A stretch of 53,362 bases of DNA. Origin: a virus. The notes beneath the pieces were generated by a model. That model did not search any database. It saw only the letters and a program-made list of their open reading frames with translations, and was not told the origin of the DNA. The DNA lies in IMG/VR virus record IMGVR_UViG_3300047160_009474, positions 1 to 53,362 of that record. One strand, written 5' to 3'. Below, piece by piece: positions 25,966 to 39,945 of this stretch. The position numbers and the translations under genes are program-made. The first letter of the stretch is position 1, and each line of letters begins with the position of its first letter.

Positions 25966-27333
25966 TCAGCTGCAGCTGACACAGTCGAAGTCAGCAACGC
26001 ATCGGGTAAAGATGAGCAGCCGTCCGTAATCAGGGAAAATCGGCTTGGCCGCATGCCGGTATTCGGCAACGTGCCGTCCCAGTTTGTGGGTCGGGTCCTG
26101 GGTGCCAGCCGGGCAATCCGGGAAGCCGATCAATGCATCGTTGCCGGTGATGAAATTCCATTCCCCCATATAATTTTGGGCCATCCATTTCATGCCCGGC
26201 GCAGAGTTGACGGGCCGCAGAACCTCTTCGGTGTAGACCCATGGGTTGAGCACAATGCAGCCTTCGTAGGTGGCGATGTTGGGGTTCTGCCAGTAGGGGT
26301 TCACGATGGATACCTGCCCCTTCGTCGCATTGACCTGAGCGGTCGACATGTTCCAGGTCGGCACCCGGTAGTAACCGGTCGCCGTGGCGACAGTCGGTGG
26401 CAGTCCGGGAGCCAGTGACAGGGCCTGGCCGGAAGTCAGCCATGCCCACCGTGGCGGAAACATCGTGATGATGTGCCGAAAGTTCTTGATGACCCGCGAG
26501 GCACCCATGCGGGCAATCACCGGGTTGGCATCGCCAAAGGCTTCAAAGGCCGAGCGGTAATCACGGCGAAGCTCGCTGTTGTTAAGCAGGATTTTATTCG
26601 AAGCTTCCTGACCAATGAGCAGCGAATAGATAGGACCCTCAGGACCCAGCGTCATCCAACCGTTGCTGTTGGGATCGAATGCGCCGGTCTCGTTTAAGTT
26701 GAGTGCCGTCAGGTCCAGAAAGTCCTGCGAGAGATTGCAGGAAGCCTGGCCGATGGCAGTGCTGCCCGCCGTCACACCGTTCAAGTCAACAATGGAGGGT
26801 GGCGGCTGGGCTGCGGCCTGGTTGAAGATGCCCGGCACGAAGGTGAAAGGGCTGGAGGTCGAATTAATACAAGCCGCCTTGCTTGAATAATTCATGTAAA
26901 TGTTGGCGAGCCGATTGATGATGGATTTGGCATTTCTTTTCTCCAATGCCATAAAATACTTTTCCCAAAAATCGGTCGAGTTCCAATGCAGCGTGAGGTC
27001 GTCCTGACAGATGAGCGGGCCGACCAGGCCGAACTCTTCGGGCTTGTACACGACCTCCAGGTGACCCACATAGGTCTGGTTGTAGGTGACGGCACAGCTG
27101 CCCACAAAGGTTCCGCCGGAAGTGGTTTGGATGGGGGGCCAGGTTTCTTCATCGGTCGCCGGTTCGCTTCGACCAATCGTGAAGGCCGAGCGGTTCAGAC
27201 CGGCTCCCACCGGCCATTCAGCGCGGGGGACCAGGTTCAACCAGGGGTCTTGCCAGGAGGCACGAACGTAGAGTTGCGGGCCGAGATCTTCGACGCGCAT
27301 TCTCAGGACATCGAACGGATTTAAACAGGCCAT
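25966..27333 (-). CDS. Probable major capsid protein (455 aa)
   Basis: Follows the scaffold gene in the canonical portal-scaffold-capsid order. It has its own late motif upstream and a non-repetitive globular sequence. No homology search was run. Confidence 0.6.
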   Translation of the reverse strand: MACLNPFDVLRMRVEDLGPQLYVRASWQDPWLNLVPRAEWPVGAGLNRSAFTIGRSEPATDEETWPPIQTTSGGTFVGSCAVTYNQTYVGHLEVVYKPEEFGLVGPLICQDDLTLHWNSTDFWEKYFMALEKRNAKSIINRLANIYMNYSSKAACINSTSSPFTFVPGIFNQAAAQPPPSIVDLNGVTAGSTAIGQASCNLSQDFLDLTALNLNETGAFDPNSNGWMTLGPEGPIYSLLIGQEASNKILLNNSELRRDYRSAFEAFGDANPVIARMGASRVIKNFRHIITMFPPRWAWLTSGQALSLAPGLPPTVATATGYYRVPTWNMSTAQVNATKGQVSIVNPYWQNPNIATYEGCIVLNPWVYTEEVLRPVNSAPGMKWMAQNYMGEWNFITGNDALIGFPDCPAGTQDPTHKLGRHVAEYRHAAKPIFPDYGRLLIFTRCVADFDCVSCS

Positions 27334-27526
27334 AAAAATCTCAAAGTTGCCAACGTGTTTGCAGGGGAAGACCGCATGCCGATGCGGCGACACACTGCGG
27401 GTGTTTTGGATTTTTACGCGATGAAGTCGGCGCGTAACGCCGGTGCTCCTGGTCCTGTTACCGAGCTTTAATGACCTGAGGCTGTTTTATGTCGGTTGCA
27501 GCCTTCAACCAAGGCATCTGTCGCAC

Positions 27527-27546
27527 GTTGCCAAAAACGTGTCAAC
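27527..27546 (-). promoter_or_regulatory. Late-type inverted-repeat motif upstream of the capsid gene (minus reading GTTGACA-cgtttt-TGGCAAC)
   Basis: Forward GTTGCCAaaaacgTGTCAAC. The extended match to 1636-1665 comprises ATCTGTTGACA and CAACGTGCGA at identical spacing. Confidence 0.6.
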
Positions 27547-27550
27547 AGAT

Positions 27551-27700
27551 TTATTTCCGAATCGTAGTGCGGTAGGGCTCTGTGCGCCTGAGCAAGTCCT
27601 TGCCTCGCTGTCGCTCAAAGGTCATCCCGATGCTAAAGCCAATAGCGAACACATATCCCAGTATCAGCAGGGCCAGCAGGATGGCCCCTGCGATTATCAT
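27551..27700 (-). CDS. Small single-pass membrane protein (49 aa)
   Basis: Its ATG overlaps the scaffold stop (ATGA). MIIAGAILLALLILGYVFAIGFSIGM... Confidence 0.4.
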   Translation of the reverse strand: MIIAGAILLALLILGYVFAIGFSIGMTFERQRGKDLLRRTEPYRTTIRK

Positions 27701-28869
27701 TGCTCGTCCAACCTCGGCAGGTTCGCAACCCACGGGGCCATGGCCTGCCGGGGGCTGGAGCCGGGAGCAATCAGGACTTTCCTGGGCTCGTTGCCGTTGG
27801 TGGTGGTCTCAGTGTTCTGGACTCGCGCATTCGGTTGAGCCGCACTGAGACTCTTGATTTGCTCCTGCGCTTTGGCTAACTGGTCCCGCAAAGCAAGGTT
27901 CTCCTCCAGCACTGGCTCCGAGCCGGTCCCCGCCACAATCAGCCGCAGGATGCTATCCGCGCTGCCCTTGCCACTGAAAAGGTTCCTCACCACCTGGACC
28001 CGCTGGTCGACTGCCTTGTTCCACTCCTCCTGCCCTTCCCGTTTCTGGAAGGCCGGGTGCCCATTCTTGGCATTCTGTGCGGCCAAGAGCACTGAATCCA
28101 CAGCCTTGTTGAGCATGACACCCTGGTCGGCAACCCGTTTGGCTTCAGTCTCCTGCATCTGGCGGAAGTTCTCCTGGCTCTTCTTGATTTCGCCCTGCCG
28201 CTCATTCTCCAGTATCGCCAGGCTATTAACCACCCCACCGATTCGGGCCGCAGCCATGGAGGTAAGGTCCGCCGTGAATTCGTCCAGCTGCGTGTCTTTG
28301 TATTCACCCTCGGGCATCTCCAGAATCTTGGCGATTTGGTCAGCCCTTTCCTTCCCGACAATGGAGCGAGCCACATCAATCTGCGCCTTCCTCTTGTCCC
28401 CGAAGTAAGCCTGGAACCTCGGGTGCTGGGTGACATCGACCACCTTCAGACGCTCGCTCAGAGCATCCCGCTCCTCCTGCAATGATTTGTACTCTGAGCT
28501 CTCGGTCGCCGGTGTGGCCGTGGTCTTCTTGGCATCATCGCGCTCCGACTCAAGCGTCTTTATCCGGGTCTCATATTCAGCGTATTTACTATCCCGGACC
28601 TTCTTAAACTCTTTCCACTGGTCAGCCGAGCGGGGCCACTTGTCCTCGGTGGTCACCGGCTCCCGGGCGGGCTCTTTGGCCGGTTCCTTCTGCGGCTCCT
28701 TGGGTGGCTCTTTGTCGGGCTCCTTCGGTGGCTCAGGCTCAACCAGTTTGTCTTTATTGGGAATATTCGCGGGCGTTCCGATTTGCGGGTTGGGCAACTC
28801 TGCGGAGAGTGCGCCCATGAAATCTTTCAACGCCTGCGCCGGTGGTGCTAGTGTCGGTGCATCAGGCAT
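27697..28869 (-). CDS. Probable scaffolding protein (~390 aa)
   Basis: Charged, coiled-coil-rich, with an EPxKEP repeat tract, lying immediately upstream of the capsid gene. Start is ATG 28869 or GTG 28875. Confidence 0.6.
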   Translation of the reverse strand: MPDAPTLAPPAQALKDFMGALSAELPNPQIGTPANIPNKDKLVEPEPPKEPDKEPPKEPQKEPAKEPAREPVTTEDKWPRSADQWKEFKKVRDSKYAEYETRIKTLESERDDAKKTTATPATESSEYKSLQEERDALSERLKVVDVTQHPRFQAYFGDKRKAQIDVARSIVGKERADQIAKILEMPEGEYKDTQLDEFTADLTSMAAARIGGVVNSLAILENERQGEIKKSQENFRQMQETEAKRVADQGVMLNKAVDSVLLAAQNAKNGHPAFQKREGQEEWNKAVDQRVQVVRNLFSGKGSADSILRLIVAGTGSEPVLEENLALRDQLAKAQEQIKSLSAAQPNARVQNTETTTNGNEPRKVLIAPGSSPRQAMAPWVANLPRLDEQ

Positions 28870-28886
28870 AATCACTACATGAAACC

Positions 28887-28906
28887 GTTGTCAGTAACCT
28901 GTCAAC
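28887..28906 (-). promoter_or_regulatory. Late-type inverted-repeat motif upstream of the scaffold gene (minus reading GTTGACA-ggttac-TGACAAC)
   Basis: Forward GTTGTCAgtaaccTGTCAAC, 17 nt from the scaffold ATG. Confidence 0.6.
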
Positions 28907-28909
28907 AAC

Positions 28910-29245
28910 TTACTTGCGTAATTCCTCGGGCTCGAACGTGGCATCGGGTGCCGTGCCGATGGCTTTGAACTGTCCCAGTGCCTCCAGGTTAGCCAGGCAC
29001 ATCGAGTAGCCCTCGGCCCTGGCCTGCAGGATAGCCCGCATCTCCAGGGATGAATTGTGGTGGTCCTCAACCACCAGGGCCGGGTGTTCGTTGTGCAGCA
29101 CCGCCAGCATGAGCTGGAGCCGGGAATCCCCCAGCAGGATCTTCGCCTGCCCGGAGAGCTCCTTATCGGCCTGCCACTCATGCAATCGCAATTCTGTAAC
29201 CGTGCGGGTTACGATTTGGATCTTGAGCTGTCTTTTACCGAACAT
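28910..29245 (-). CDS. Hypothetical protein (111 aa)
   Basis: Trimmed to MFGKRQLKIQIVTRTV.... Last gene of the inserted cassette. Confidence 0.5.
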   Translation of the reverse strand: MFGKRQLKIQIVTRTVTELRLHEWQADKELSGQAKILLGDSRLQLMLAVLHNEHPALVVEDHHNSSLEMRAILQARAEGYSMCLANLEALGQFKAIGTAPDATFEPEELRK

Positions 29246-29558
29246 CGGGATCCACTTTATGAGGCGGGATAATTGTGCCCGCAGCTTTAACAATGACATC
29301 CATTTCCTCCCAACTCTTGAGTTCCAGCACCAGAAACTTGCGGCCAATCACGGTGAGACCCCGGAAGATCGTAACCATGTTGCCCTCCTGCTCGATGCGA
29401 TAGCCCCGTTCCTTCATCCAGCCCAGGGCATCCTGGTCCTTGTAGTGCATGCCATGGTAGATATGCGGCGGCAGTTCCTTCTTCAGGGTCTGGTCCACCC
29501 ACTTGAACTTCATCCGCTCGATGCCTTTGCGAATATCGTCTCTGGCTATTCGTTTCAT
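29235..29558 (-). CDS. Hypothetical protein (107 aa)
   Basis: Its ATG overlaps the upstream TAA (TAATG). MKRIARDDIRKGIERMKFKWVDQ... Confidence 0.5.
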   Translation of the reverse strand: MKRIARDDIRKGIERMKFKWVDQTLKKELPPHIYHGMHYKDQDALGWMKERGYRIEQEGNMVTIFRGLTVIGRKFLVLELKSWEEMDVIVKAAGTIIPPHKVDPDVR

Positions 29559-29902
29559 TAGTATGGCCCCCACTGAACTGGACCCGGGGGCACAGGTTTT
29601 ACCGGCGGGGTTAGTTCCACAATCCATCCACACTTGGAGCAGAAGGCTCTTTGTATGGGCATCGATTGCAGCTGGGGATGTGTGTTGCCAGCTACCGGGT
29701 TCTGGCAGGGCGCATACATCTGCACGTAGTTATGTCCCGCAGCAAGGCAGGGGTGGGTTGCCGGTGAGGGTTTCGGCGGTGCCGGTCGAGGCGGGTCTTT
29801 CGGTGGTGGTGTCCTGACCGTCCTCTTGTCAACGGTCCTTTGGGTCCTGGAGCCAAATGACTCCCGTCTGTGTTTTTGTCTTCGTTTGGTTTTCTTTTTC
29901 AT
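29558..29902 (-). CDS. Basic/Pro-rich protein with a Cys cluster (114 aa)
   Basis: MKKKTKRRQKHRR... then PPPKDPPRPAPPKPSP and FCSKCGW. ATGA-coupled. Confidence 0.5.
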   Translation of the reverse strand: MKKKTKRRQKHRRESFGSRTQRTVDKRTVRTPPPKDPPRPAPPKPSPATHPCLAAGHNYVQMYAPCQNPVAGNTHPQLQSMPIQRAFCSKCGWIVELTPPVKPVPPGPVQWGPY

Positions 29903-30900
29903 AAATCGCTCACCAGTATCGTGAGGTCATCGTGCGGAATCTCGACCCACCCGCATTTCAAATCATTCACCCCCAGTGTGATGAGCCACTTGCCCTCCCG
30001 CAACAGTGCCCCGCAGGGGAACACCACCAGGGGTTTGCGCGGGAACCAGTAATCGTTCTGGCTCCCGATGAGCAAGGGCTCTGCCGTAACTTTTGTTACG
30101 TTGAACGGTGGCTCTGCTTTGAAGGCGTAGGCTCCCATAAAGTATCGCCGGTAGGGCGGCTTCCATTCCATCGAACTGTGAAAGAAGGTCCAGTATTCAT
30201 CACCTACCCGAACCGGCGGGGTGCCCCCGCGAATCACACCATGCGGCCAGGGGCATTCACTGGTGGTCTTGTAGACCTGGCTCTGGCGCATCTCCCCATC
30301 GAACTCGACAATCTCATGGTTGGGTGGACCGGCATAAAGCATGTGGGGTTTCTGGGAGTGGAACCACCAGAGCCAGTTCTTTTCATGCCCCCGGTTCTGT
30401 CCCAGCCCGCCGCCATTCTTGCCGTAGTCAGGATCATACCGGGATACGGCGACCCACTTGTCATCCACCGGCACCAGGATCTGGTGTCCACCGGTCCAGC
30501 GGTTGCGGTCACCAAACCAAACGAAGTTGCAGGCACCAATCCAGGTGCGCCCGCCAAAGACAACGGCGCGAGGATCCTCAAACTGCTCCTCGGGCTTGCT
30601 CGGCATCATTTGGACTTTCACCCCGCGCAGTGGAGTGATGCCATCAGGCTCTCCCAGGGCAAAGGCGTAAATGGCATTGCGGCCAAAGCGCAGCCGGTCT
30701 TCGAAGATGGAGCGTCGGACCAAGAGCCAAAGTCCATCGGGCCGCTCAACGATGCCGGGATTGAAGTAGTCAACGTGGTCCTTTTCGGCCAGACCAAAGG
30801 AGAAGATCCCGGCCTTCCACCCGGAGTGTGCGGCCTGCTCGGTGAGCTTGGGAACCAGGTCGTCCCGCTTGAGGTGATGTTTTTCCAGCTGGTCGTTCAT
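29899..30900 (-). CDS. Beta-propeller glycosidase/phosphorylase-like or glycosyltransferase-like protein (333 aa)
   Basis: Motifs FEDPRAV and GHEKNWLWW recall GH130/GH43-type propellers and EKNW-type mannosyl enzymes (from memory). ATGA-coupled within the cassette. Confidence 0.4.
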   Translation of the reverse strand: MNDQLEKHHLKRDDLVPKLTEQAAHSGWKAGIFSFGLAEKDHVDYFNPGIVERPDGLWLLVRRSIFEDRLRFGRNAIYAFALGEPDGITPLRGVKVQMMPSKPEEQFEDPRAVVFGGRTWIGACNFVWFGDRNRWTGGHQILVPVDDKWVAVSRYDPDYGKNGGGLGQNRGHEKNWLWWFHSQKPHMLYAGPPNHEIVEFDGEMRQSQVYKTTSECPWPHGVIRGGTPPVRVGDEYWTFFHSSMEWKPPYRRYFMGAYAFKAEPPFNVTKVTAEPLLIGSQNDYWFPRKPLVVFPCGALLREGKWLITLGVNDLKCGWVEIPHDDLTILVSDL

Positions 30901-31511
30901 CGCACCTTGAAAATCTTGTAGGTCGCGCCGTCCTTAACACAGTCGGCGTAATCGAGGATGAGGCCCTGAGCTTTTCGCGTGGTCTCCCAGTCGCAGTCGT
31001 CAAACAGGATGATTCCATCTTTTCGCACTTTGGGGACATAGTTTTGAACGTCGCGGCAGGAGGGCACCTCGGCGTGATTGCCGTCGATGTTGAGCATGTC
31101 AATATTTGTGAATAACTGGTGAACATATTGGGACTGAGCTCGAATCGGAATCACGTACTCATCCAGGCCCAATCGCCAGAAAGCTTCCATCGCCCCCTTG
31201 TGTACCCAGTCCAGGTCGATGGATTGCCACCAGCCCTTGTTGGCATCGTTCTCAGACTCCAGGCAATCGGAACGCTTCCACGGGTCGATGGTGTAAAGCT
31301 TCCCGCGCCCCAGCTCTTTAAGAGCCAGCCCCATCGCAATGGTCGAGCGTCCCCCGAAACACCCGATTTCTACGATGAGGCCAGGCTCAAAATTAATAAC
31401 CAGTTCCGCCATCTCCACGCCGCGCTCCGGGGTGGTCCAGCCCTGCAGACACCCTTCCCGGTCCAGAACCAGTTCCCGGCGCAGTTGCACAATGAGAGCT
31501 TCAGCAATCAT
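30897..31511 (-). CDS. Class I SAM-dependent methyltransferase (204 aa)
   Basis: LIVEIGCFGGRSTIAMGLAL (SAM-binding loop) then ...YTIDPW...LNIDGNH, an O-methyltransferase / Methyltransf_24-like layout. Confidence 0.6.
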   Translation of the reverse strand: MIAEALIVQLRRELVLDREGCLQGWTTPERGVEMAELVINFEPGLIVEIGCFGGRSTIAMGLALKELGRGKLYTIDPWKRSDCLESENDANKGWWQSIDLDWVHKGAMEAFWRLGLDEYVIPIRAQSQYVHQLFTNIDMLNIDGNHAEVPSCRDVQNYVPKVRKDGIILFDDCDWETTRKAQGLILDYADCVKDGATYKIFKVR

Positions 31512-32062
31512 CGGCCCCTCCCATCGTGATGCCAGTGGATGTCACGCAGAGCCTCAATCTGCCTGCCTTGTTTGTGACACTCGTCAAACCAGCAGTAATC
31601 AATCGGCAGGTAATTCTCCAACGACTTGGCCCATGCCGTGGGCACCACCATGCCGCCCACTCCATACGGAAAGGGATAACAACTTCCACCCAGTTCGTAG
31701 AATTCGGCCATGTAAGCCTTGCCCTCATTGGCGGTTCGCAGTTGCGGCTGCCAGTTGCCGACCAGCCACGCATCATCATCGAGAAACCAGGACCATTTGC
31801 CCTGCGCTGCACTGAGCATCTCCTCGGTGAACCGCAGCATGTCCCCGCCTTTTGTCTTGCCCCGGTCGCTGACCACCACTCTGACCGGTACTTGCAGATT
31901 CAGCGTTTTAACGAACCACTCCCGCTCCGGCTGGTCCGCATCCACCTTCAGCACCACCTCGACCTCTGTCCGGTCCAGAGCTGTGTTGTCAATTGAACGC
32001 AGTGCCCTCTCCAGCCACTCATGCCGGTGGCGGCTGGGCATCAAGAACGACACCAGCTTCAT
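31508..32062 (-). CDS. GT-A fold glycosyltransferase-like protein (184 aa)
   Basis: VSFLMPSRHRHEWLERALRSI (family-2-like N-terminus) and a DxD motif, WFLDDDAW. Confidence 0.5.
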   Translation of the reverse strand: MKLVSFLMPSRHRHEWLERALRSIDNTALDRTEVEVVLKVDADQPEREWFVKTLNLQVPVRVVVSDRGKTKGGDMLRFTEEMLSAAQGKWSWFLDDDAWLVGNWQPQLRTANEGKAYMAEFYELGGSCYPFPYGVGGMVVPTAWAKSLENYLPIDYCWFDECHKQGRQIEALRDIHWHHDGRGR

Positions 32063-33045
32063 AGTTCCCTCAGTGGCATCCGGGTATACCAGTCATGCTC
32101 CGGGGTGCAGCGAACGGGAAACTCTCCGCCGTTCAGAATGGCCTGTCTCAGTGTCCCGATGTCGTCAAAGCCATTGCCGAAATACTGCTCAAAACGGGTG
32201 CTCCCCCGGGCCTGGTTGAGCGCACTGTGCGACTTGTCGTTCTGTCCATTGCCGCCGATGACAGGCCGGTCCCCTTCCCAATGCCAGTCCTCCTTTCGGA
32301 AGGCAGGCTCCAGGTGGTGGTGCTCCTCGCTTTCCAAGGTCAGCATGTTCCGGTTGTAACGGAAGCCATAGCGGTTGGTGTTGCCCAGGGTGATGCCGGT
32401 GCAAACGTCCTCAAACCCCAGACCATCACACAGGGCCTCACCCCACCCGTTGATGTCCAGGAACGCCTGCACCGGCGCAATCAAAGAGCAGCCATACATC
32501 CAGTCGCCGCCAACCGAAACCAGGTCGGATGCGGCCTGGTCCCAGCGACCGTCCTTGTCCTGGAGCTTAAACGATTCGGCTCGACCATTGGTGACCACTA
32601 AGTCCCTGACCTTCAGGTAGGCACCCAGGCCGATGTAACCCTTCTGAATGGCATCGGTCACCGAGTTGACCCAGCCGGGCATGAGGACCGACAGGTCATC
32701 CACGTAAGCAATCCATCCATCGGGGGCATAACACAGCCCAGTGTTGCGAGCGTTGGCCATGGCAAACCAATCCTCCTTGGTGAGCCGGTGCTTGCCCTGC
32801 CAGACACACGGTTTTGGCTCGACTAACTTGTAGGGAAACCGGGGCGGGAAGAATTCAACCGGCCTCTCCTTGGCGTAGAAGTCAACCAGCACCACGTTGG
32901 TCGCAAAGGGAAGCGACTCTCCATCATCGAGCAGCCTCAATAACGAATCGAGGAACCACTCAATCTTGCAGTTCCTCCGGGCCGTGCAGTAGCAAATGGT
33001 GAGGTTGATGGCGTGGCCCTTCAGGTCTGCCGCATCACGGTTCAT
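32059..33045 (-). CDS. GT-A fold glycosyltransferase-like protein (328 aa)
   Basis: Its ATG overlaps the RHH stop (ATGA). ANARNTGLCYAPDGWIAYVDDLS fits an NxARN...DxD pattern. Confidence 0.5.
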   Translation of the reverse strand: MNRDAADLKGHAINLTICYCTARRNCKIEWFLDSLLRLLDDGESLPFATNVVLVDFYAKERPVEFFPPRFPYKLVEPKPCVWQGKHRLTKEDWFAMANARNTGLCYAPDGWIAYVDDLSVLMPGWVNSVTDAIQKGYIGLGAYLKVRDLVVTNGRAESFKLQDKDGRWDQAASDLVSVGGDWMYGCSLIAPVQAFLDINGWGEALCDGLGFEDVCTGITLGNTNRYGFRYNRNMLTLESEEHHHLEPAFRKEDWHWEGDRPVIGGNGQNDKSHSALNQARGSTRFEQYFGNGFDDIGTLRQAILNGGEFPVRCTPEHDWYTRMPLREL

Positions 33046-33209
33046 GCCTTGGGCTGTTGTGCGAAGAGCTCCTCCAGCTTCTCCCGGCACTTGCCGAGCA
33101 TGAAGTCCACGATGAAGGCCACGCTCACATGGTTCTTCTGTGCCATCTCAGTCAGTGATTCGTGAGCGTTCTTGCTCACCCGGACAGTTTTAGTGTCATC
33201 CAGTAGCAT
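33042..33209 (-). CDS. Ribbon-helix-helix small regulator (55 aa) heading the enzyme cassette
   Basis: MLLDDTKTVRVSKNAHESLTEMAQKNHVSVAFIVDFMLGKC.... The late motif ends 19 nt upstream of its ATG. Confidence 0.5.
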   Translation of the reverse strand: MLLDDTKTVRVSKNAHESLTEMAQKNHVSVAFIVDFMLGKCREKLEELFAQQPKA

Positions 33210-33228
33210 TGCGTTACTACTCGACACC

Positions 33229-33248
33229 GTTGCCACTATTCTGTCAAC
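33229..33248 (-). promoter_or_regulatory. Late-type inverted-repeat motif upstream of the RHH/glycosyltransferase cassette (minus reading GTTGACA-gaatag-TGGCAAC)
   Basis: Forward GTTGCCActattcTGTCAAC, lying between the stop at 33253 and the ATG at 33209. Confidence 0.6.
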
Positions 33249-33252
33249 ACCT

Positions 33253-33471
33253 TTAATGCCGCTTCTTGTGCCGGGGGCCGAAGTGAATGCCCGTCCTGGC
33301 AAATCCGCTGTTGCTCTTGCCTTTGGGAGTCTTGTCGCTCATGGGCTTGCGGGGCCAGGGCATGCGGAACACATCCTTCATCGGGTCCATGACCGGGGGC
33401 CGGTCCTGCGCTGGCGGCTTGTGGTAATCGAACGGGTTATTCGGATACGTTGAATCGGTTTCTCTTTCCAT
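33253..33471 (-). CDS. Small basic/Pro-rich hypothetical protein (72 aa)
   Basis: ATG-initiated ORF between the ATP-grasp-like gene and the cassette promoter. Confidence 0.45.
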   Translation of the reverse strand: MERETDSTYPNNPFDYHKPPAQDRPPVMDPMKDVFRMPWPRKPMSDKTPKGKSNSGFARTGIHFGPRHKKRH

Positions 33472-33555
33472 AACTTTGGTCTGCGTGTTGTTGGCGAGAT
33501 GCGTCAGCCCCTCGCGCTCTCAAACCTGGGTTTGCTGGCTGCTCTTCAGGCGGCA

Positions 33556-34857
33556 TTAATCATCACCTCCTAACACAATCTCGGGTTCAGGTATGGTCTG
33601 TTCAGTGAATTGCATACCACTGTCCTCGGCCTCCTTGATCTGCTTCAGCAAATCGGAGAGCTCGGAGAATTCGCAGGAGGCACCATCGGGCAGCATGGCA
33701 GCGTGGTTTTTAAGTTCCCCAATCGCTTGCTCAATGGTGTCTCCAATCGCAACCAGCCAGCCAACGTCACTATCGTTGGAATCATCTGGCGGGAACCAAA
33801 GCTTGCCACCCTCCCGGACACAGTTGCCACATTTGATCCAACGGTCCAACTCCTCGGGCAGGTTCATGGCCGACCAGGTGGTGCGGTCGCCTTTCAATTT
33901 AATGAGCCCCTGCACTCCAATTTTGGCGGCGGGTTCCGGGTCGATGAGGTTTCCGTTAGCCCCCTGCCAGATGATGTCCGAGAAATTGGCGAAGAGCTCG
34001 GCCATTACCTGGGAGGGTGGCGAGCCCGCCCGGCAGGTGGGGTCGGTAAAGTAGCTCTCGCCCTCTTCGGTTATTCGAACCTCGGAGGAGAAGAACGACC
34101 GGTACCCGTATTTGGCCAGTACCGGCCCGAAGGCCTCGTTAACCACCGACAATTCTTTGGGTAGATCTTCGAACTTTTGCACCGCCCCCAGGAACGCCTT
34201 GTCCTTGGCCTCCATGCCATGAACGCAAAGACTAGGCCAATTGCCGTCAATGTTATAGCCGTCGTAACCGTCCTCAATTTTGGTTTCGATAGGGTCAAAG
34301 ACATAGAACACCACCTGTTCCCGGTAGGGACCAAACTTCACGGCGTAATGGTCCAGGGTATTTTCATCCTCATCCCAGCTCCTCCAGTGCAAGGTTTCCC
34401 AGTCCCCGCGATAGCGGCTGATCTTGATCCACTTGTCCTCCCGCTTTTTGAGATGCTCCCGCAGGTCGGTGATCCCGTAAATCGGCACACACCTGGGGAC
34501 CGGCAACTCAGTCTCGTTCTGCAATACGTTCAGGAATTTGCCCCGCAGGATTTCCAGTGAATCACCGGCGCGGGCACCCCACACAATGCGGCCATCCCGC
34601 AAGAGCTTCCTCTGGATCCCGGATAGTCCGATGTCAGGACAGACCCACAGGTCGGTCTCCTCTTCCCGGTCCCACTCACTCTCCAGCCGGGTGAGTTCCG
34701 GGAAGCCATCGCCAATCTGGTCTTTGCACGTTTCAAAGGCTCGCTCATGCGGCGACCAGTAGTTCACGCGCTTAACGTCGCGGGCGATGCGCCTGGCAAT
34801 GGGCACAAAGAGCCCCTTGTCCAGCACCGTCACTTCGATTTCAGAAAGCTCTTTCAC
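33556..34857 (-). CDS. ATP-grasp-like enzyme (433 aa), tentative
   Basis: GTG start overlapping the upstream stop. Strings KISRYRGDWETL and SSEVRITEEGESYFTDPTCRAGSPPS resemble ATP-grasp core motifs (by eye only). Confidence 0.4.
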   Translation of the reverse strand: MKELSEIEVTVLDKGLFVPIARRIARDVKRVNYWSPHERAFETCKDQIGDGFPELTRLESEWDREEETDLWVCPDIGLSGIQRKLLRDGRIVWGARAGDSLEILRGKFLNVLQNETELPVPRCVPIYGITDLREHLKKREDKWIKISRYRGDWETLHWRSWDEDENTLDHYAVKFGPYREQVVFYVFDPIETKIEDGYDGYNIDGNWPSLCVHGMEAKDKAFLGAVQKFEDLPKELSVVNEAFGPVLAKYGYRSFFSSEVRITEEGESYFTDPTCRAGSPPSQVMAELFANFSDIIWQGANGNLIDPEPAAKIGVQGLIKLKGDRTTWSAMNLPEELDRWIKCGNCVREGGKLWFPPDDSNDSDVGWLVAIGDTIEQAIGELKNHAAMLPDGASCEFSELSDLLKQIKEAEDSGMQFTEQTIPEPEIVLGGDD

Positions 34858-34973
34858 TCGTCCAAATCCTCAGTTCGCATCCGCAGCACATCCGCCGGTT
34901 CCTCACAGTCCTCGTCCTCATCGAGCTCATCAGGCAGTCCCTCATCCGGCAATTCAGGATCGCCTTCAGGCAT
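34854..34973 (-). CDS. Very acidic mini-ORF (39 aa), below the track threshold
   Basis: MPEGDPELPDEGLPDELDEDEDCEEPADVLRMRTEDLDE. Its stop overlaps the next GTG (GTGA). Confidence 0.3.
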   Translation of the reverse strand: MPEGDPELPDEGLPDELDEDEDCEEPADVLRMRTEDLDE

Positions 34974-35265
34974 AAAACTCAAAAAAGAATGGATGCTTTA
35001 CGGCAACCTTGATATGTCCAAGGAGTTCCAAGGACATCCACCGCATGGGATTGCGGTGAGCTTCTATCCCGATTGATACTCCAGCCTCAGTCAGGCTCGC
35101 AAAGCCGGTATCAGCCTTCGTAACACCAAACGCCTTGGCCAGTTCCTGCAAATACCGGCGGTCTTTTTCCGCACGGCTATTCCTTTCAAAACCCTTCAGC
35201 ACACCATCCCATAACCAGTAGCAACCGTTAGGTTTTTCGATTGTGATAATTCTATTGCTCCTCAT
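34966..35265 (-). CDS. Hypothetical protein (99 aa)
   Basis: ATGA-coupled to the portal gene. Confidence 0.5.
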   Translation of the reverse strand: MRSNRIITIEKPNGCYWLWDGVLKGFERNSRAEKDRRYLQELAKAFGVTKADTGFASLTEAGVSIGIEAHRNPMRWMSLELLGHIKVAVKHPFFFEFYA

Positions 35266-37520
35266 TCAGTCTCCGCGAATGCCTTGAGGTTGCTGCGGTG
35301 GATCTCGCTGGCGGTCGAGGCATCAGCCAGGGCCATCCCCTGCCGGTGCTGCTGGTCTTTAATCTGCATCTGCTGGCGGGCCTTGGCCGTCTTGATGGCG
35401 AGGTCCGACTGCGTCTTGGCGTTCTTTAACTGCAAGTCGCTCATCACCTGTTGTGTCCGACCGGCCTGTGCCTTCTGTTGTTCCGCCTGGCGTTGGGCCA
35501 TGGCCTTCAACTGGTCGGTCATCTTCATCAGTTGCTGCATCTGTTTCTCCATCTGTTTGTAAACGGATTGTCGCAATGGGTCTTGGGCGAAGCGTTTCAT
35601 GTGCGCCATGATCGCCGGGCCGCAGATATTTAAGAACGCAACCACCGTATTGATGTCCGCTCCCTGCTGTACGCTTTGGATGGCACTGACGGCTGCCGAG
35701 AGGAACACACCGGCGAAGGTCACCGGGTTCTGTTGGGAGGTAATGATGGGCTTAACCCCCGTCTTCATCGCGGCAACCTGGGTCATGGCAAAGGCAGTCT
35801 GGTCGTTGGGCATCCGCTGCTGGATGGTCTTGGGGAAGTAGCGGGACACTGCCGTCTGCCCGGCCTCCACCGCAATCTTGTCGGCAATGAGATTCTCCCG
35901 CCCCTCCTCGGGCAGCGAACCGGCCAACTGCATCAGGGAATCCACTGCGTTCTTCCGCATGAAGGTGCTCCCCTGGCCGATCACCCGCAGTGCCCTCACC
36001 CGTTCGATGCGGCCAAAGCACTGGCGTGGCACTCCGCGCTTTTCACATCGCTTCTGGATTTCTTTGGCGCGAGGGTCGGTCGAGTTCAAGTCGAACATCC
36101 GGCGGACAATCTCGCCATACAAAGCGTCCATCTGTTTGTAATAGCGGTTGTAAGTCGTCTTGTTGAGCGAGCTCTGCTGGCTGGCATCCAGCATGATTTG
36201 TTTGGCGGTCACCGGGTTGCCGGTCTGTTTAGTGGGCACCTGCTGGCGGTACTGCGAGAGGGTCGACTGCATGATTTGGGTCAACTCCCCGTTCATCGCC
36301 AGTCCCTCCTGCAGCATGCCGCCAATGGGGTTTTGCACCACATCGTAACCGGAGGGCAAAAGGCCATAGTCGCCGTGATGCGCCAGGTTGAACCGCTGGG
36401 TGGCCTCGGTGGTCGTGGGCTTAAAGAGGGTTTTGGGCGAATTGGCCTTATCCACCAGGTTGCAGATCATTCGGTTCTGGTGCTCCATGGCCGCATACAT
36501 CTTGACCCCCAGGCCGGTGACCGAGTGATGCATGCCGCCATTGCCCCGGTCGAAGTACATCGGGTGGCAGCATTCCTCCCAGGTGCGGTAACGTCCCCGG
36601 TTGAAATAGAGATAGCGAATGTCGGTGGGCTCCGGGCTCTGGCTGCTGACCTGCCGGGGGCCGGTGCCGGTCGAGCTTTCGCGCTCCACGATGGCCTGCG
36701 TGATCGACTGGTCAAACTCCTGCCAGAACACATAAGCCAACTGGATCCACTTGGAATCATCCCACATGTAAGCCAGTGAGTTGTTCTTCAACTCCTGTTG
36801 GACAAAGGTCCACTCCCGGCGGATGCCCTCCTGGGTCCGCAGGTCCATGGCGTTCTCAATCACGCACTTGGTGTAAGGCACATCCCAGCCCACTTTGCTG
36901 GCAGCCTCCTCATCCAGGATGAACTTGTAGAGTTGGGGCGGGTAGTAGTTGACCACCAGGGCGCAAGCCTCCCAGTAATGGGTATCGGAGGGAGTGAATT
37001 CCGGGACGAAGAGTTTCCACACGGCCCGGGGCAGGATGGAGTATTTGTCTTCGAACATGAGCGGACCCTTGCCGTGCAGCACCATCTTCCACTGGCTCTG
37101 CTGCATCTCGTAATCCCACACCGGATCCCGGTCGAGCATCGCATCGGCTTCCTCGCTCATCACCCGGGAATACTGCAGGCGCATCTCGTCGGTGCCGTAA
37201 CTGGTCTCAATGCTCACATAGCCCGGTGCCTCGGAGAATAAATCGTAGAAGGCCCCCGACCCATTCTCCATGTATGAGCGGCCAATGCCCCAGTTGACGT
37301 TGCACTTATTGGTCATCCCCGCTTCCCTGAGTTTGGAATAGCGGAAGGGCGGATTGCCATCCACCAGTCCATTGACCCGTGACTCCTTGTAGTCGCGCTG
37401 CTCGTCGTTATCGGAAAGCCGCCTGACCCAGTCCTGGGTCGAGCGGGCATCGGACATCCGAGTCTCGGGCACTTCCCCGTGGTCGATGGTCTTTAATGTT
37501 TCAGTTCCGTAAGTAGCCAT
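35262..37520 (-). CDS. Probable portal protein (752 aa)
   Basis: Its size, its position just downstream of TerL (one small gene between) and a long Q/K/A-rich C-terminal coiled coil (P22-barrel-like) support the call. No search was run. Confidence 0.6.
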   Translation of the reverse strand: MATYGTETLKTIDHGEVPETRMSDARSTQDWVRRLSDNDEQRDYKESRVNGLVDGNPPFRYSKLREAGMTNKCNVNWGIGRSYMENGSGAFYDLFSEAPGYVSIETSYGTDEMRLQYSRVMSEEADAMLDRDPVWDYEMQQSQWKMVLHGKGPLMFEDKYSILPRAVWKLFVPEFTPSDTHYWEACALVVNYYPPQLYKFILDEEAASKVGWDVPYTKCVIENAMDLRTQEGIRREWTFVQQELKNNSLAYMWDDSKWIQLAYVFWQEFDQSITQAIVERESSTGTGPRQVSSQSPEPTDIRYLYFNRGRYRTWEECCHPMYFDRGNGGMHHSVTGLGVKMYAAMEHQNRMICNLVDKANSPKTLFKPTTTEATQRFNLAHHGDYGLLPSGYDVVQNPIGGMLQEGLAMNGELTQIMQSTLSQYRQQVPTKQTGNPVTAKQIMLDASQQSSLNKTTYNRYYKQMDALYGEIVRRMFDLNSTDPRAKEIQKRCEKRGVPRQCFGRIERVRALRVIGQGSTFMRKNAVDSLMQLAGSLPEEGRENLIADKIAVEAGQTAVSRYFPKTIQQRMPNDQTAFAMTQVAAMKTGVKPIITSQQNPVTFAGVFLSAAVSAIQSVQQGADINTVVAFLNICGPAIMAHMKRFAQDPLRQSVYKQMEKQMQQLMKMTDQLKAMAQRQAEQQKAQAGRTQQVMSDLQLKNAKTQSDLAIKTAKARQQMQIKDQQHRQGMALADASTASEIHRSNLKAFAETE

Positions 37521-37524
37521 AAGT

Positions 37525-38121
37525 TCAGGTGGTGCATTGCTTCCAGCACCTGGGCACGGCTGCGAATTGTTTGGCCATTTCCTCGTTCACATCGGGACAC
37601 TGGGTGTCCAACGGGAACCACACGGCCACTCGGGTCCAGCAGCCGCAGATGCCGCAGGCCCGCAGGTCATGGTCGTAAGGAGTGGATTTGCTGCCGGTGC
37701 CCGAAAGGACATTCACCAGTTCCGAGCACAGACCGGCGCAGGGTTTGGAAAAGAAGACTGCCTGGGGACAGCTCGCGCAGATTGCGGCCCGCTCGTTTGC
37801 GGTGGCCTGGGCCACTAACTGCGAGCCGGTGAGCTTGTGCCGGGCAAAGGTCATCGTGCCCCGCACGATTTCGCCCATGCTCCAATGGCTCTTGCGCCGG
37901 GTGCCGGGCGGAACATTCTCGCAGTCATCGGGGTAGTTGGCGCAGATGTCCCGCTCCACCTCCTGCTCGAAGTCCAATCCCACCGGGACACCGTTGGCCT
38001 TGCGCTCCTGGTAGGCGAAGTGCATCAACTGCTCGAAGGTGGTGCCCCTGACTTCCTGGCGGGTCAGCGGGTCACGCCAGAGAAAAGAACCGCCATAGGG
38101 GATTTGCGAGATGATCCTCAT
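37525..38121 (-). CDS. Cys-rich hypothetical protein between terminase and portal (198 aa)
   Basis: ATGA-coupled to terL. CASCPQ...CAGLC...CGICGC cluster. Confidence 0.55.
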   Translation of the reverse strand: MRIISQIPYGGSFLWRDPLTRQEVRGTTFEQLMHFAYQERKANGVPVGLDFEQEVERDICANYPDDCENVPPGTRRKSHWSMGEIVRGTMTFARHKLTGSQLVAQATANERAAICASCPQAVFFSKPCAGLCSELVNVLSGTGSKSTPYDHDLRACGICGCWTRVAVWFPLDTQCPDVNEEMAKQFAAVPRCWKQCTT

Positions 38122-39875
38122 GCCTCGATTTCCTCCGGGACATAGCCCACCTGGTCTGACTCCTCGTACACGCTGTTAACCTCCTGGGCGTAGTTGAAGA
38201 ATTCCTCACTGCGGGCGACCGTCTCGCCGATGGGTTGGATGCGGAAACCCCGCTGGCGGGCAACCTCGATGATCATCACAAAGCAGTCGGACAAGTCGGG
38301 CGACTCACCGAACTGCTCCTTGTAATCCCGCTTGTTCATCATCACGATCCGCTGCTTCGAATCGTCAAACTCGATGGTGCAAAGCTCTCGGGCCGTCAGC
38401 TGGTCCAACCCGCGCAACTGCTCATGGTTCATCGCATCGCGAGAGCGGAAGTACATCTCAGTGCGCTTATTCCAGTAAACCTCCTTTGCGGGTCGGATGT
38501 CCTCGGGCGAGCAGGAGTCTTCACTGGCCGCTCCCGCGAATTCGATGCGGATGATCTTCGGGCTCCAGATGCGTTGGACGATGTCGCACAGACCCCCGCC
38601 CTCGCCGGTGGCATCGATGCCCAGGTTTTGGGGTTCGCAGGAGTATTCGACTCCGTTGTATTGAAAGGATTCGCATTGGCGTTTTAACTGTTCCGCAAGT
38701 TGGAAGTGGACCGGGTTTTTCGATGAGGCGTCGATGGTGAGGATGACGGGCGGCATGCATTCGATGCCGGTGTTCCCGTTAGAGATTTCTCCCATTTTGG
38801 CAAATCGAAGAGCGGGCCGGTCGCCCCCGCCGAAAGCTGGGTCGAAAGCTCCAATAATTCGGAAATTTCTTCCGGTGAATACGTGGCGTTCGAAACCTTT
38901 TGCATTGATGATTCCTACTTCGCTAAAGACAGTTTTAGTGAGCCCGATGGGTGGCCAGAACCCCCGTTCGTTCGACCAATAGGAGGGGCTGTTCTCCCCG
39001 CCTGCCAGTGCCCGGCGGCTCTCCACCCGGCGCAGGGAAGGCAAGTGCCTGGAAACAGTTTTACCATTCAGAATGTTGGGCGACTTCTCGGCATCGAACC
39101 GCAGCACAATGCCGGTCCTGCCGTTCTGTTGGGGCTTGCTCTCCCACTCCTCGGTCTCGACGCTGACACTTGCCCACCCGTCCTTGGGCTCGCAGAACTT
39201 CCCCATCTCATCCAGCCGCGAGCGGGGGTTGCCGATGACCACCATTAGGAATTCTTCGCAGGCCGCAGACAGGTTGAACCCCGCTTCGAAGATGGCATGC
39301 GGCACGGCTGTTGCCTCATCTATGACAACCATCTGGCGGCGGGTGTGGTGGCCTTTGATGTTGTCGGCCACCTTGAAGACTGAGCCCTCGCGCACGGCGA
39401 TGCCGATGATGGCATGTTTATCGTCGCCCTTGTTGGACTGCCAGATCATGCGCGAATCCACAAAGTTGCCGTACTGCCGAGGACCCAAAGCCGAGAAGAG
39501 CCGCTGGATCTCCGACCAGCCCCGCCGCCTCAGAGCCTTGGCGGTGGTGGAGCAAAAGATGACGCTGGATTCCTCGGGGCAACAGAGCCACCAAATCCCC
39601 GCAAACCCAGCGACATTAAAGGTTTTTGCGCTCCCCGCGCAGCCCGCCAGGCCGACCCACTCATTGAAGCAGCAGGCATCGATGATGTTGTTAGTCCAAG
39701 GGTGATACTCGAAATGCTTGGGCAGGAGCAGATTGGCAACCGCCCGGAAAAGGTCAGGCCGTGGCGGCATTCCCCGCATCGGGCCATTGCGATGACTGAA
39801 CGCCCAGCGGTCGTAGGAGAGCTGATCCAGGCCAGGTTTTAAGCCATAGGTTCTGACCGTAGCCGTGGTAGGCAT
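38118..39875 (-). CDS. terL: Terminase large subunit (585 aa)
   Basis: Walker A-like GCAGSAKT, Walker B MVVIDEAT, then VIGNP and a C-terminal nuclease-sized half. First gene of the morphogenesis operon. Confidence 0.8.
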   Translation of the reverse strand: MPTTATVRTYGLKPGLDQLSYDRWAFSHRNGPMRGMPPRPDLFRAVANLLLPKHFEYHPWTNNIIDACCFNEWVGLAGCAGSAKTFNVAGFAGIWWLCCPEESSVIFCSTTAKALRRRGWSEIQRLFSALGPRQYGNFVDSRMIWQSNKGDDKHAIIGIAVREGSVFKVADNIKGHHTRRQMVVIDEATAVPHAIFEAGFNLSAACEEFLMVVIGNPRSRLDEMGKFCEPKDGWASVSVETEEWESKPQQNGRTGIVLRFDAEKSPNILNGKTVSRHLPSLRRVESRRALAGGENSPSYWSNERGFWPPIGLTKTVFSEVGIINAKGFERHVFTGRNFRIIGAFDPAFGGGDRPALRFAKMGEISNGNTGIECMPPVILTIDASSKNPVHFQLAEQLKRQCESFQYNGVEYSCEPQNLGIDATGEGGGLCDIVQRIWSPKIIRIEFAGAASEDSCSPEDIRPAKEVYWNKRTEMYFRSRDAMNHEQLRGLDQLTARELCTIEFDDSKQRIVMMNKRDYKEQFGESPDLSDCFVMIIEVARQRGFRIQPIGETVARSEEFFNYAQEVNSVYEESDQVGYVPEEIEA

Positions 39876-39919
39876 TTGTGTTGACCCTACATCATCTGGG
39901 GGTTATCAGTAAAGCGTAC

Positions 39920-39939
39920 GTTGGCAGAAAAGTGGCAAC
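39920..39939. promoter_or_regulatory. Late-type inverted-repeat motif in the divergent terL / tail-operon control region (GTTGGCA-gaaaag-TGGCAAC)
   Basis: The minus-strand reading TTGCCA-N9-CAACG lies 44 nt upstream of the terL ATG. The near-symmetric site could serve both directions. Confidence 0.5.
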
Positions 39940-39945
39940 ACTAAT

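Follow-up and report, generated by a model that had tools for sequence, protein, structure and literature searches.

Some viruses glycosylate their own virions, as is established for giant algal viruses (PMC7826918) and for a few mycobacteriophages (PMC12363180). In the algal virus PBCV-1, protein A064R carries two rhamnosyltransferase domains and a 2-O-methyltransferase domain and acts on the capsid N-glycan (PMC7826918), and the mycobacteriophages Che8, Corndog, and Myrna glycosylate their virions with their own glycosyltransferases (GTs) (Freeman et al. 2023, as cited in PMC12363180). Here, we describe a set of putative glycan enzymes encoded among the head genes of a temperate tailed phage, IMG/VR record IMGVR_UViG_3300047160_009474, whose 53,362 bp (hereafter, the window) are an entire JGI contig. 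The locus, positions 28910-34973 of the minus strand, is a densely packed run of open reading frames (ORFs), and its accessory module consists of a ribbon-helix-helix (RHH)-like regulator, two GT-A GTs, an S-adenosylmethionine (SAM)-dependent methyltransferase (MT), and a GH130-family protein. The reading we tentatively favour, at somewhat less than an even chance, is that the enzymes of the module assemble a methylated glycan in the cytoplasm late in infection, on an acceptor that the phage specifies and that is most plausibly a virion protein.

The comparison with mycobacteriophage virion glycosylation holds in outline: in both, a tailed phage encodes GTs among its accessory, variable genes, and a glycan coat on capsid or tail proteins is proposed. 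However, no sequence relationship between the two systems was found, there being no GenBank phage matches, the lineage of the window is a different and uncultured one, and the mycobacteriophage system, as described in PMC12363180, does not include the GH130-type and Methyltransf_24 (MT24) enzymes that are both present in the window cassette. By analogy with A064R, two GTs would work with an MT that caps the terminal sugar, all virus encoded and cytoplasmic, but here these are separate genes of a bacterial virus and are joined by an extra GH130-type enzyme. The GH130 β-1,2-mannoside phosphorylases and dual mannosyltransferase-phosphorylases Teth514_1788, Lin0857, and Uhgb_MS (PMC12814180, PMC4264767) are the best matches of the window protein's family profile and share with it the Pfam GH130 family, the EDPR motif, and a cytoplasmic location, although only the C-terminal two thirds of the window protein align, its NCBIfam equivalog score is far below cutoff (27 vs 550 bits), and it is encoded in a phage head operon with GTs and not in a catabolic locus. 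Finally, TarP of Staphylococcus aureus prophages and the Gtr seroconversion clusters are likewise cases of temperate phages with GT-A enzymes, and one GT of the window (GT343) is weakly similar to TarP; unlike the Gtr clusters, the window cassette has no GtrA-, GtrB-, or GtrV-like membrane proteins and lies inside the head cluster, not at the prophage end. What is new is thus an unusual enzyme set in an undescribed phage lineage, beside a conserved ATP-grasp gene; what is known is the kind of system, a virus-encoded glycosylation module.

Enzymes of the glycan cassette

The enzymes are encoded as follows, in transcription order.

32059..33045, minus strand: GT-A glycosyltransferase 1 (GT343), 328 aa from its ATG, with a DxD motif in YVDDLS
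31508..32062, minus strand: GT-A/GT2 glycosyltransferase 2 (GT184), 184 aa, with DDD in WFLDDDAW
30897..31511, minus strand: class I SAM-dependent MT of the Methyltransf_24 family, 204 aa, with motif I VEIGCFGGRST
29899..30900, minus strand: GH130-family protein, 333 aa, cytoplasmic, β-mannoside phosphorylase/transferase-like

An earlier sequence-only reading of this stretch had named two GT-A proteins, an SAM methyltransferase, and a β-propeller protein here, and profile searches largely bore out these calls. GT184 passes PF00535 over residues 5-112 (E 2.3e-5; 24.8 bits vs a cutoff of 23.3) and has weak NCBIfam similarity to PglI. GT343, which most likely starts at the ATG at 33045, falls below that cutoff when searched alone (E 0.034; 14.5 bits vs 23.3), but 15 of 27 sampled members of its family of 807 homologues match PF00535 at E ≤ 0.01 (best 2.1e-5), and D116, D117, and S119 of its DxD motif (YVDDLSV) are invariant in 27 sequences. 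The best match of the GT343 profile in the PDB is a weak one, to the prophage-encoded wall teichoic acid (WTA) N-acetylglucosamine transferase TarP (6h1j; E 0.098). The MT matches PF13578 well above its cutoff (E 2.2e-19; 70.7 bits vs 26.3).

The propeller ORF is a GH130-family protein; a five-bladed β-propeller is the fold of this family. It matches PF04041 with 37.1 bits vs a cutoff of 26, over residues 196-326 only, and a five-sequence profile detects the β-1,2-mannobiose phosphorylase 7fip over residues 105-325 (E 5.8e-10), as well as Lin0857, the 1,2-β-oligomannan phosphorylase 9fj8, and the Uhgb_MS mannoside synthase 9eqq. Opposite YHG and YRLG of 7fip, the window protein has H241 and Y253, both invariant, and its FEDPR motif (E108 and D109 invariant in five sequences) aligns with VEDPR, the Asp of which we take, from the GH130 literature, to be catalytic. 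In this family, the phosphate-binding site is formed by three basic residues in phosphorylases vs carboxylates in hydrolases, and cytoplasmic members are phosphorylases and secreted ones hydrolases (PMC4599007); enzymes acting on β-1,2/1,3-mannosides show both phosphorylase and transferase activity (PMC12814180). No membrane segments were found in the cassette proteins (maximum Kyte-Doolittle value over 19 residues, <1.6), the N-terminus of the GH130 protein is not hydrophobic, and PADLOC returned no defence-system match for 10 proteins.

Recurrence and mobility of the module

In an iterated hidden Markov model search of 73 ATP-grasp-bearing loci, GT343 and GH130 genes were confined to the window and to L002, L070, L071, and L072; L082 was added later, and the two genes occur together in all six contigs. 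The trio of GT, MT24, and GH130 genes is not a one-off combination but recurs in five other contigs in varying orders, strands, and slots. L071 and L082, the closest whole-genome relatives (portal 62-63% and capsid 77-78% identical), carry GT, MT24, and GH130 in the same slot as the window, without GT184 and RHH, and the closest fragment, L084 (ATP-grasp 79%), has the acidic mini-ORF, ATP-grasp, basic ORF, RHH, and GT. In L002, all four enzymes are present in a different order and on the opposite strand, between the ATP-grasp and capsid genes. The L070 copy, directly upstream of the portal gene, comprises GH130, GT, GT2, an acetyltransferase, a DegT aminotransferase, an epimerase/dehydratase, and MT24; the acetyltransferase, aminotransferase, and epimerase/dehydratase together are a typical route to an N-acetylated amino-deoxy sugar. 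In L072, GT, HNH, MT24, GT2, and GH130 genes stand beside an unannotated 571-aa ORF of terminase-like size, so that the module adjoins identified head genes in five of six contigs. Homologues of GT184 were found in L002, L070, L072, and L003, whereas L071 and L082, whose cassettes are nearest to that of the window, have none. Because the trio recurs together in other orders, strands, and slots, GT-A, MT24, and GH130 form a functionally linked, mobile module. No GenBank phage matches the module: among 50,697 phage records, neither megablast with 14 kb of the window nor tblastn with the portal sequence gave a match.

The module sits in a variable slot that begins after the ATP-grasp gene and ends at the small ORFs before the scaffold gene. 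In L001, L003, and L004, just three to four small ORFs separate ATP-grasp from the scaffold and capsid genes, and the ~6 kb that had been taken as an insertion between portal and scaffold is overstated, as the material in excess of this minimal layout amounts to ~3.3 kb. MT24 homologues are more widespread: they occur in 21 of the 73 loci, in most cases a short way before the portal gene. In the 5-7 kb region of L001, L003, L004, and L007-L027, just before the portals, MT24 often occurs with radical-SAM enzymes, C-methyltransferases, or epimerases, even without a nearby GT. When 150 ORFs neighbouring 24 of the loci were surveyed with Pfam, they included methyltransferases, radical-SAM enzymes, an epimerase, a GDP-mannose-dehydratase-like protein, a cytidylyltransferase, and a GT2. 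Tailoring enzymes thus have a hot spot in the head region of these phages.

Gene order and regulation

On the minus strand, the terminase gene (38118-39875) is followed by a 198-aa ORF, a 752-aa portal-sized protein, and a 99-aa ORF (g99); then by the 39-aa acidic mini-ORF, the 433-aa ATP-grasp protein, a 72-aa basic ORF, and a palindromic motif; then by a 55-aa RHH-like ORF, GT343, GT184, the MT, and the GH130-like protein; then by three small ORFs, the motif again, and a 392-aa scaffold-like protein; and finally by a small membrane ORF, a third motif copy, and a 455-aa capsid-like protein. The ORF run is real and most of its junctions overlap, as the sequence-only reading had it: ATGA start/stop overlaps were read at six junctions (portal/g99, RHH/GT343, GT343/GT184, GT184/MT, MT/GH130, and GH130/g114, the last being a 114-aa ORF), with TAATG coupling at ATP-grasp/g39 and g114/g132 and GTGA at mini-ORF/ATP-grasp. 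The GC content is uniform across the region, and the cassette equals its flanks. The regulatory features are as follows.

33228..33249, minus strand: palindromic motif GTTGACAgaatagTGGCAAC; distance to the RHH start, 19 nt
28886-28907: motif copy before the scaffold gene, 11-17 nt from its start
27526-27547: motif copy before the capsid gene, ~190 nt from its start
39919-39940: motif copy before the terminase gene, 44 nt from its start
1639-1660, 2265-2285, and 2771-2792: motif copies in the early region
33042..33209, minus strand: putative RHH regulator, 55 aa, ATGA-coupled to GT343

The motif noticed earlier is real and palindromic. GTTGACA-N6-TGNCAAC has 18 matches in the window vs 1.9 expected, a count reached by none of 100 shuffles. 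Because the same palindrome precedes the scaffold, capsid, and terminase genes, the cassette is likely co-regulated with the head genes. This does not fit the earlier description of the cassette as separately regulated, and no terminator bracketing it was found. The copies before the RHH and scaffold genes share the downstream sequence CAACGGT.TC..GTAGT.A..ATG; in both, the start codon follows within 11-19 nt, and this interval contains no Shine-Dalgarno sequence. Motif copies beside start codons could point to leaderless mRNAs or to an RNA hairpin operator. The palindrome may act as DNA, in the form of an operator or promoter, or as a hairpin in the RNA near the start codon. A sigma-70 or sigma-54 promoter was rejected by hand, as the spacing of the motif fits neither, and a consensus scan of the minus strand from 25.5 to 40.5 kb found no promoter.

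The ORF at 33042..33209 that had been taken for an RHH regulator is likewise real, and its RHH identity is putative. It is conserved in L084 as a 55-aa ORF (50% identity; E 5e-17), again ATGA-coupled to a GT. A β-α-α pattern can be read by eye, the HicB match is below cutoff (E 0.025), and a PDB sequence search gave no confirmation. In L071, which has no RHH gene, the motif is not enriched; this single comparison would fit binding of the palindrome by the RHH protein.

The ATP-grasp ligase and its acidic mini-ORF

Upstream of the cassette, three ORFs follow the portal and g99.

34854..34973, minus strand: acidic mini-ORF, 39 aa from its ATG, MPEGDPELPDEGLPDELDEDEDCEEPADVLRMRTEDLDE; its stop overlaps the ATP-grasp start
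33556..34857, minus strand: ATP-grasp carboxylate-amine ligase-like protein, 433 aa; a core gene of the lineage, outside the glycan cassette
33253..33471, minus strand: small basic ORF, 72 aa (K+R 15, D+E 8), conserved 3' of ATP-grasp

The 433-aa protein had no match in Pfam, PHROG, NCBIfam, or PDB sequence searches, and structure prediction agreed with the initial ATP-grasp call. An AlphaFold2 (AF2) model built from a 29-sequence alignment had a mean predicted local distance difference test (pLDDT) score of 92.3 and a predicted template modelling (TM) score of 0.91, and the model adopts the three-domain ATP-grasp fold. Foldseek aligned it over its full length with glycinamide ribonucleotide synthetase (PurD), PurK, PurT, and biotin carboxylase (E 1.9e-17 to 1e-13; TM 0.6-0.7), among >600 PDB matches at E ≤ 0.001, and found no close viral structure in BFVD. 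The window protein thus shares the full-length fold of these ligases without belonging to any of their families at the sequence level. K145 (IKISR), E259-x-R261, D272, R276, and the motif DPTCRAGSPP are invariant, and K145, E259-x-R261, and D272-P-T-C-R276-A-G-S look like the canonical ATP-grasp nucleotide and metal motifs.

The family is large, with 403 homologues at 50-79% identity, many on contigs of 50-57 kb, and 864 cluster representatives at E ≤ 1e-30 in an exhaustive profile search. A portal-like ORF lies 16-951 nt upstream of ATP-grasp on the same strand in all 31 loci of the closer clade among the 73 surveyed, and ATP-grasp directly follows the portal in the four relatives fetched with 10-kb flanks. 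Between the window and L001-L004, ATP-grasp is 53-56% identical, portals ~21%, and terminases 25-28%, with capsid similarity undetectable, and ATP-grasp is the best-conserved protein common to all cassette-bearing phages. Its constant place beside the portal in the closer clade, its far better conservation than portal, terminase, and capsid, and the presence of inteins make ATP-grasp a constrained core enzyme of the lineage and not cargo. The synteny survey called for by the sequence-only reading, which returned both the five further contigs with the module and the 31 loci with portal before ATP-grasp, thus removes the mini-ORF and ATP-grasp from the cassette to which they had been assigned: both are core and follow the portal in relatives that have no glycan genes. 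The core unit comprises the portal, one or two small ORFs, and ATP-grasp, with the translationally coupled acidic micro-protein ahead of the ligase in the window phage and some of its relatives.

About 20 of the top 150 ATP-grasp representatives (~13%) are 770-800 aa long, and the two that were read (P0367 and P0363) contain LAGLIDADG-type inteins, one exactly before Cys275 in the DPT|CRAGSPP loop and the other near K218; loci of intein size include L050, L063, and L068. The window ATP-grasp is also nearer to that of phages with unrelated capsids (53-56%; L084, 79%) than to that of L071 and L082 (50-51%), which suggests that the mini-ORF and ATP-grasp block may have been swapped by recombination.

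In one subclade, a gene for a pyruvoyl decarboxylase of the AdoMet_dc family (PF02675, above cutoff) lies directly upstream of ATP-grasp, which hints that the substrate of the ligase is an amine made by decarboxylation.

L032 9559-9969: AdoMet_dc-type gene, PF02675
L047 7102-7470: AdoMet_dc-type gene, PF02675
L028, L041, L048, L067, and L038: AdoMet_dc-type genes, PF02675

Our literature search found no description of a portal-adjacent ATP-grasp; the ATP-grasp of LUZ24-type phages differs in being an early-gene protein of 291 aa. The ligase LysX acts with LysW, a small acidic carrier or substrate protein. Similarly, the window encodes a small, very acidic protein ending in Glu beside its ligase, although this micro-protein has no zinc-ribbon domain and belongs to a phage head module.

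Mini-ORFs of this kind (MPEG, an acidic stretch, and a terminal E, usually as DE) precede ATP-grasp in 13 of ~70 loci. The L084 copy (541-654) is 79% identical, and its tail EPADVLRMRTEDL is unchanged despite five synonymous codon changes. The same tail copies the N-terminus of the window capsid protein, PFDVLRMRVEDLGP (27283-27327, minus strand; tblastn E 0.001, the sole window match below 0.2), a motif that is almost invariant within the capsid family, and the two DNA segments differ at synonymous positions. The tail thus has the appearance of a peptide that mimics the N-arm of the capsid protein, set directly before the ATP-grasp gene. A reading of the mini-ORF as a graspetide, an ATP-grasp-modified ribosomally synthesized and post-translationally modified peptide, was rejected on composition. 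Graspetide precursors use Ser, Thr, or Lys together with Asp or Glu to close side-chain macrocycles, whereas these mini-ORFs are almost purely acidic: Ser, Thr, and Lys are all missing from the L002 mini-ORF MPEGWAWDEDDDPPEDCENDE, and a single Thr is the only one of these residues in the window peptide.

Taken with the decarboxylase and the ~126-aa proteins found at this position in relatives, the mini-ORF may point to a carboxylate-amine ligation connected with head proteins. A broader scheme, which we consider quite unlikely, is a two-layer modification system for head components, in which a layer formed by the universally conserved, intein-prone ATP-grasp ligase would be combined with a swappable, virion-coating glycan cassette. 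ATP-grasp would recognise the capsid N-arm motif PFDVLRMRVEDL, mimicked by the acidic micro-protein, and would ligate an amine to the N-arm, with the linked decarboxylase, of the SAM decarboxylase (AdoMetDC) type, as a possible source of the amine in some relatives. If true, such an amide modification of the capsid protein, catalysed by an ATP-grasp enzyme, would add a new kind of step to the maturation of phage heads.

Proposed function of the cassette

In the favoured reading, that is, glycan synthesis on a phage-specified acceptor, the cassette genes would be expressed together with the head genes through the common palindrome and translational coupling. The GT-A enzymes would move sugars from nucleotide sugars onto the acceptor in the cytoplasm, the GH130-type enzyme would add or edit β-linked mannose, using mannose 1-phosphate (Man-1-P) or GDP-mannose (GDP-Man), and the MT would cap the terminal sugar; with a head or virion protein as acceptor, the outcome would be a glycan coat. 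The glycan is probably short, methyl-capped, and β-mannose-containing. We favour this reading because the enzymes are soluble and biosynthetic, are tied to head genes by position and regulation, and are accompanied in L070 by genes for nucleoside diphosphate (NDP)-sugar synthesis. The claim of a self-contained sugar-modification module of two GT-A enzymes, an SAM methyltransferase, and a GH130-type protein inside the head gene cluster is upheld. What the sequences show is the gene content, the folds and families, the recurrence and mobility of the module, the common motif, and the lack of membrane segments; the sugar identity, reaction order, late timing, and above all the acceptor are what we infer, and among targets a virion protein would be the most likely and DNA the least likely.

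Several observations weigh against this reading: (i) the module accompanies at least two capsid families without detectable homology (the window type and that of L002), so that a single capsid acceptor is not obvious; (ii) distant GT343+MT24 pairs occur in a chromosomal glycan-type locus of an Acidobacteriota metagenome-assembled genome (MAG), and the best weak PDB match of GT343 is the WTA transferase TarP, both of which fit an envelope target; (iii) RHH is absent from L071, L082, L070, L072, and L002; (iv) late timing is assumed from position and the common motif; and (v) an excess of N-x-S/T sequons in the window capsid (10 vs 3.85 expected; reached by 5 of 2000 shuffles) is peculiar to this phage, as the mean z over 110 capsid homologues is 0.24. 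The window capsid has the most extreme sequon count of these 110, possibly by chance, and seven of its 10 sites are absent in L071 and L073 and arose in the lineage of the window phage. N-glycosylation of the capsid at N-x-S/T was accordingly rejected, since the sites are not kept in close relatives and the family is not enriched.

The alternative that survives best, though unlikely in our view, is modification of the host envelope, as lysogenic conversion or receptor masking, in which the cassette would alter cytoplasmic intermediates of lipopolysaccharide (LPS), exopolysaccharide (EPS), or wall glycans and thereby block superinfection or re-adsorption of progeny. The phage is temperate (integrase phrog_1), GT343 weakly resembles the prophage-encoded TarP, and the weak similarity of GT184 is to PglI, an enzyme whose acceptor is a lipid-linked glycan; in addition, the chromosomal locus with distant GT343+MT24 pairs encodes a GT25 "LPS biosynthesis" protein, and RHH with its own motif copy could allow independent control. 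However, the module lies beside head genes in five of six contigs (in L072 beside the 571-aa ORF) and never at the integrase end, the window cassette is ATGA-coupled to conserved head-module ORFs, and it has neither a flippase or Gtr-type membrane GT nor a terminator that would isolate it as a moron. The same motif that stands before RHH also precedes the scaffold, capsid, and terminase genes.

We find it doubtful, and rather more so, that the glycan module instead tailors the product of ATP-grasp, that is, an amine (polyamine or amino acid) ligated to the acidic micro-protein or to another carboxylate. It is true that no more than ~350 nt separate the ATP-grasp stop from the start of the cassette in the window and in L071, L082, and L084, that ATP-grasp is the best-conserved protein of all cassette-bearing phages, and that the AdoMet_dc-type genes directly before it in some relatives could supply an amine substrate. 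In contrast, GTs were found in five of the 73 loci, most ATP-grasp-bearing loci having none, and the module is not adjacent to ATP-grasp in L070 and L072. To our knowledge, there is no example of such tailoring.

Phage GTs are known to serve in the glycosylation of phage DNA, and this role, the nearest PHROG of the MT (labelled "DNA methyltransferase"; E 1.5e-8), and the radical-SAM and other methyltransferase genes near the portal in relatives would be in keeping with sugars, possibly methylated, placed on bases of the phage genome to evade restriction; we regard this as highly improbable, as Pfam scans of ~45 window ORFs (the small ones in part) showed no dCMP/dUMP hydroxymethylase, base-exchange enzyme, or DNA polymerase, the phage is temperate and relies on host replication, and GH130-type and Methyltransf_24 proteins are glycan rather than DNA enzymes. 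Auxiliary catabolism, in which a GH130 phosphorylase would degrade host mannosides for energy with the GTs and MT as unrelated passengers, has equally little in its favour, for although characterised cytoplasmic GH130 enzymes are mostly catabolic phosphorylases (PMC4599007) and the nearest solved relatives of the window protein are mannobiose phosphorylases, GH130 is tied to GT-A and MT24 in six of six contigs and once to NDP-sugar biosynthesis, a biosynthetic signature, and has no transporter or isomerase partners.

The phage and its head genes

The window represents a temperate tailed phage that encodes an integrase (phrog_1; E 3e-20), a recombinase of the ERF family, a nuclease of the PDDEXK type, and the large subunit of a terminase (phrog_2; E 6.5e-17); GP88 was also among the Pfam matches (~45 ORFs scanned). 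On the plus strand, a giant ORF at 47566-53362, which encodes at least 1932 aa including a DUF6884 domain, extends past the contig end. It may resume at the contig start (22-1143), in which case the contig would be a complete genome that is circularly permuted. No tRNA genes were found in the window, and host searches over genome contigs gave no match with ATP-grasp as the query and distant matches only with GT343 (Verrucomicrobiota, Parachlamydiales, and Acidobacteriota MAGs). The genes that flank the cassette are as follows.

35262..37520, minus strand: putative portal, 752 aa, 3' of the terminase and 198-aa ORF; flank, outside the cassette
34966..35265, minus strand: 99-aa ORF (g99), no assigned function, ATGA-coupled to the portal
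29558..29902, minus strand: 114-aa basic, Pro-rich, Cys-containing ORF (g114), ATGA-coupled to GH130, window-specific
29235..29561, minus strand: 108-aa ORF, a conserved small ORF of the head module, its real start being the ATG within TAATG
28910..29245, minus strand: 111-aa ORF, a conserved small ORF of the head module, directly before the scaffold gene
27697..28875, minus strand: putative scaffolding protein, 392 aa, its gene followed by that of the capsid; flank
25966..27333, minus strand: putative major capsid protein, 455 aa with the start placed at the ATG at 27333; flank, candidate acceptor

The portal has homologues in 29-31 related loci, each directly upstream of ATP-grasp, and because it had no match in Pfam, PHROG, or PDB sequence searches, its identity is positional. 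The capsid and portal assignments are putative and follow from position, size, and conservation, which also point to the scaffold: the scaffold-like protein is strongly charged (K+R 58, D+E 64) and 31-33% identical to the gene at the same position in L071 and L082. Neither it nor the capsid protein had a match in Pfam, PHROG, or profile-vs-PDB searches. The capsid has 245 homologues, with 77-78% identity in the cassette-bearing L071 and L082. Its AF2 model, from a 32-sequence alignment, was poor (pLDDT 55), and the top three Foldseek matches were phage capsids at E ≥ 0.2. For a comparison of cassette presence and absence, no capsid relatives were found in an IMG/VR scan, and a JGI metagenome scan gave truncated contigs only. 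Between the scaffold and capsid genes, a small ORF (27551-27733, minus strand) begins in an ATGA overlap with the scaffold stop and encodes a single, strongly hydrophobic segment, IIAGAILLALLILGYVFAI.

Among the small ORFs, g99 had no homologues in the fetched loci. Its position together with that of the mini-ORF is filled in L071 (7704-8087) and L082 (2284-2691) by the ~126-aa family HELxEV...EPGDDPxAPY, a protein (MKIxIxTIPH...HELxEV...EPGDDPxAPY...ATGIER) with no Pfam match that is also found in the portal/ATP-grasp gap of ~25 further loci. The 72-aa basic ORF has homologues at the same position in L071 (40%), L082 (42%), and L084 (49%; E 9e-19). It is this ORF, 33253-33471, that represents the small basic ORF of the sequence-only reading, as the overlapping 39-aa ORF at 33437-33556 has TAATG coupling as its sole support. 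The three ORFs listed there as unknown are present, with their most likely starts now placed at 29902, 29561, and 29245. No family match and no homologue in any locus examined were found for g114; the 108-aa ORF has homologues 32-34% identical at the same position in L071 and L082, and the 111-aa ORF has homologues 48-49% identical in the same two, its position being filled by ORFs of 95-116 aa in L001, L003, and L004.

Implications

In the mycobacteriophages, virion glycosylation affects antibody recognition. If the virions of this phage are glycosylated, the phenomenon would extend to a large uncultured environmental lineage (at least 800 homologues of the GT; 864 cluster representatives of ATP-grasp), the GH130-type enzyme would be a viral tool for building glycans, and naturally swappable glyco-cassettes could be used for engineering phage surfaces. 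Beyond the glycan itself, separating ATP-grasp and its micro-protein from the cassette exposes a conserved enzymatic step in the head-gene clusters of these phages.

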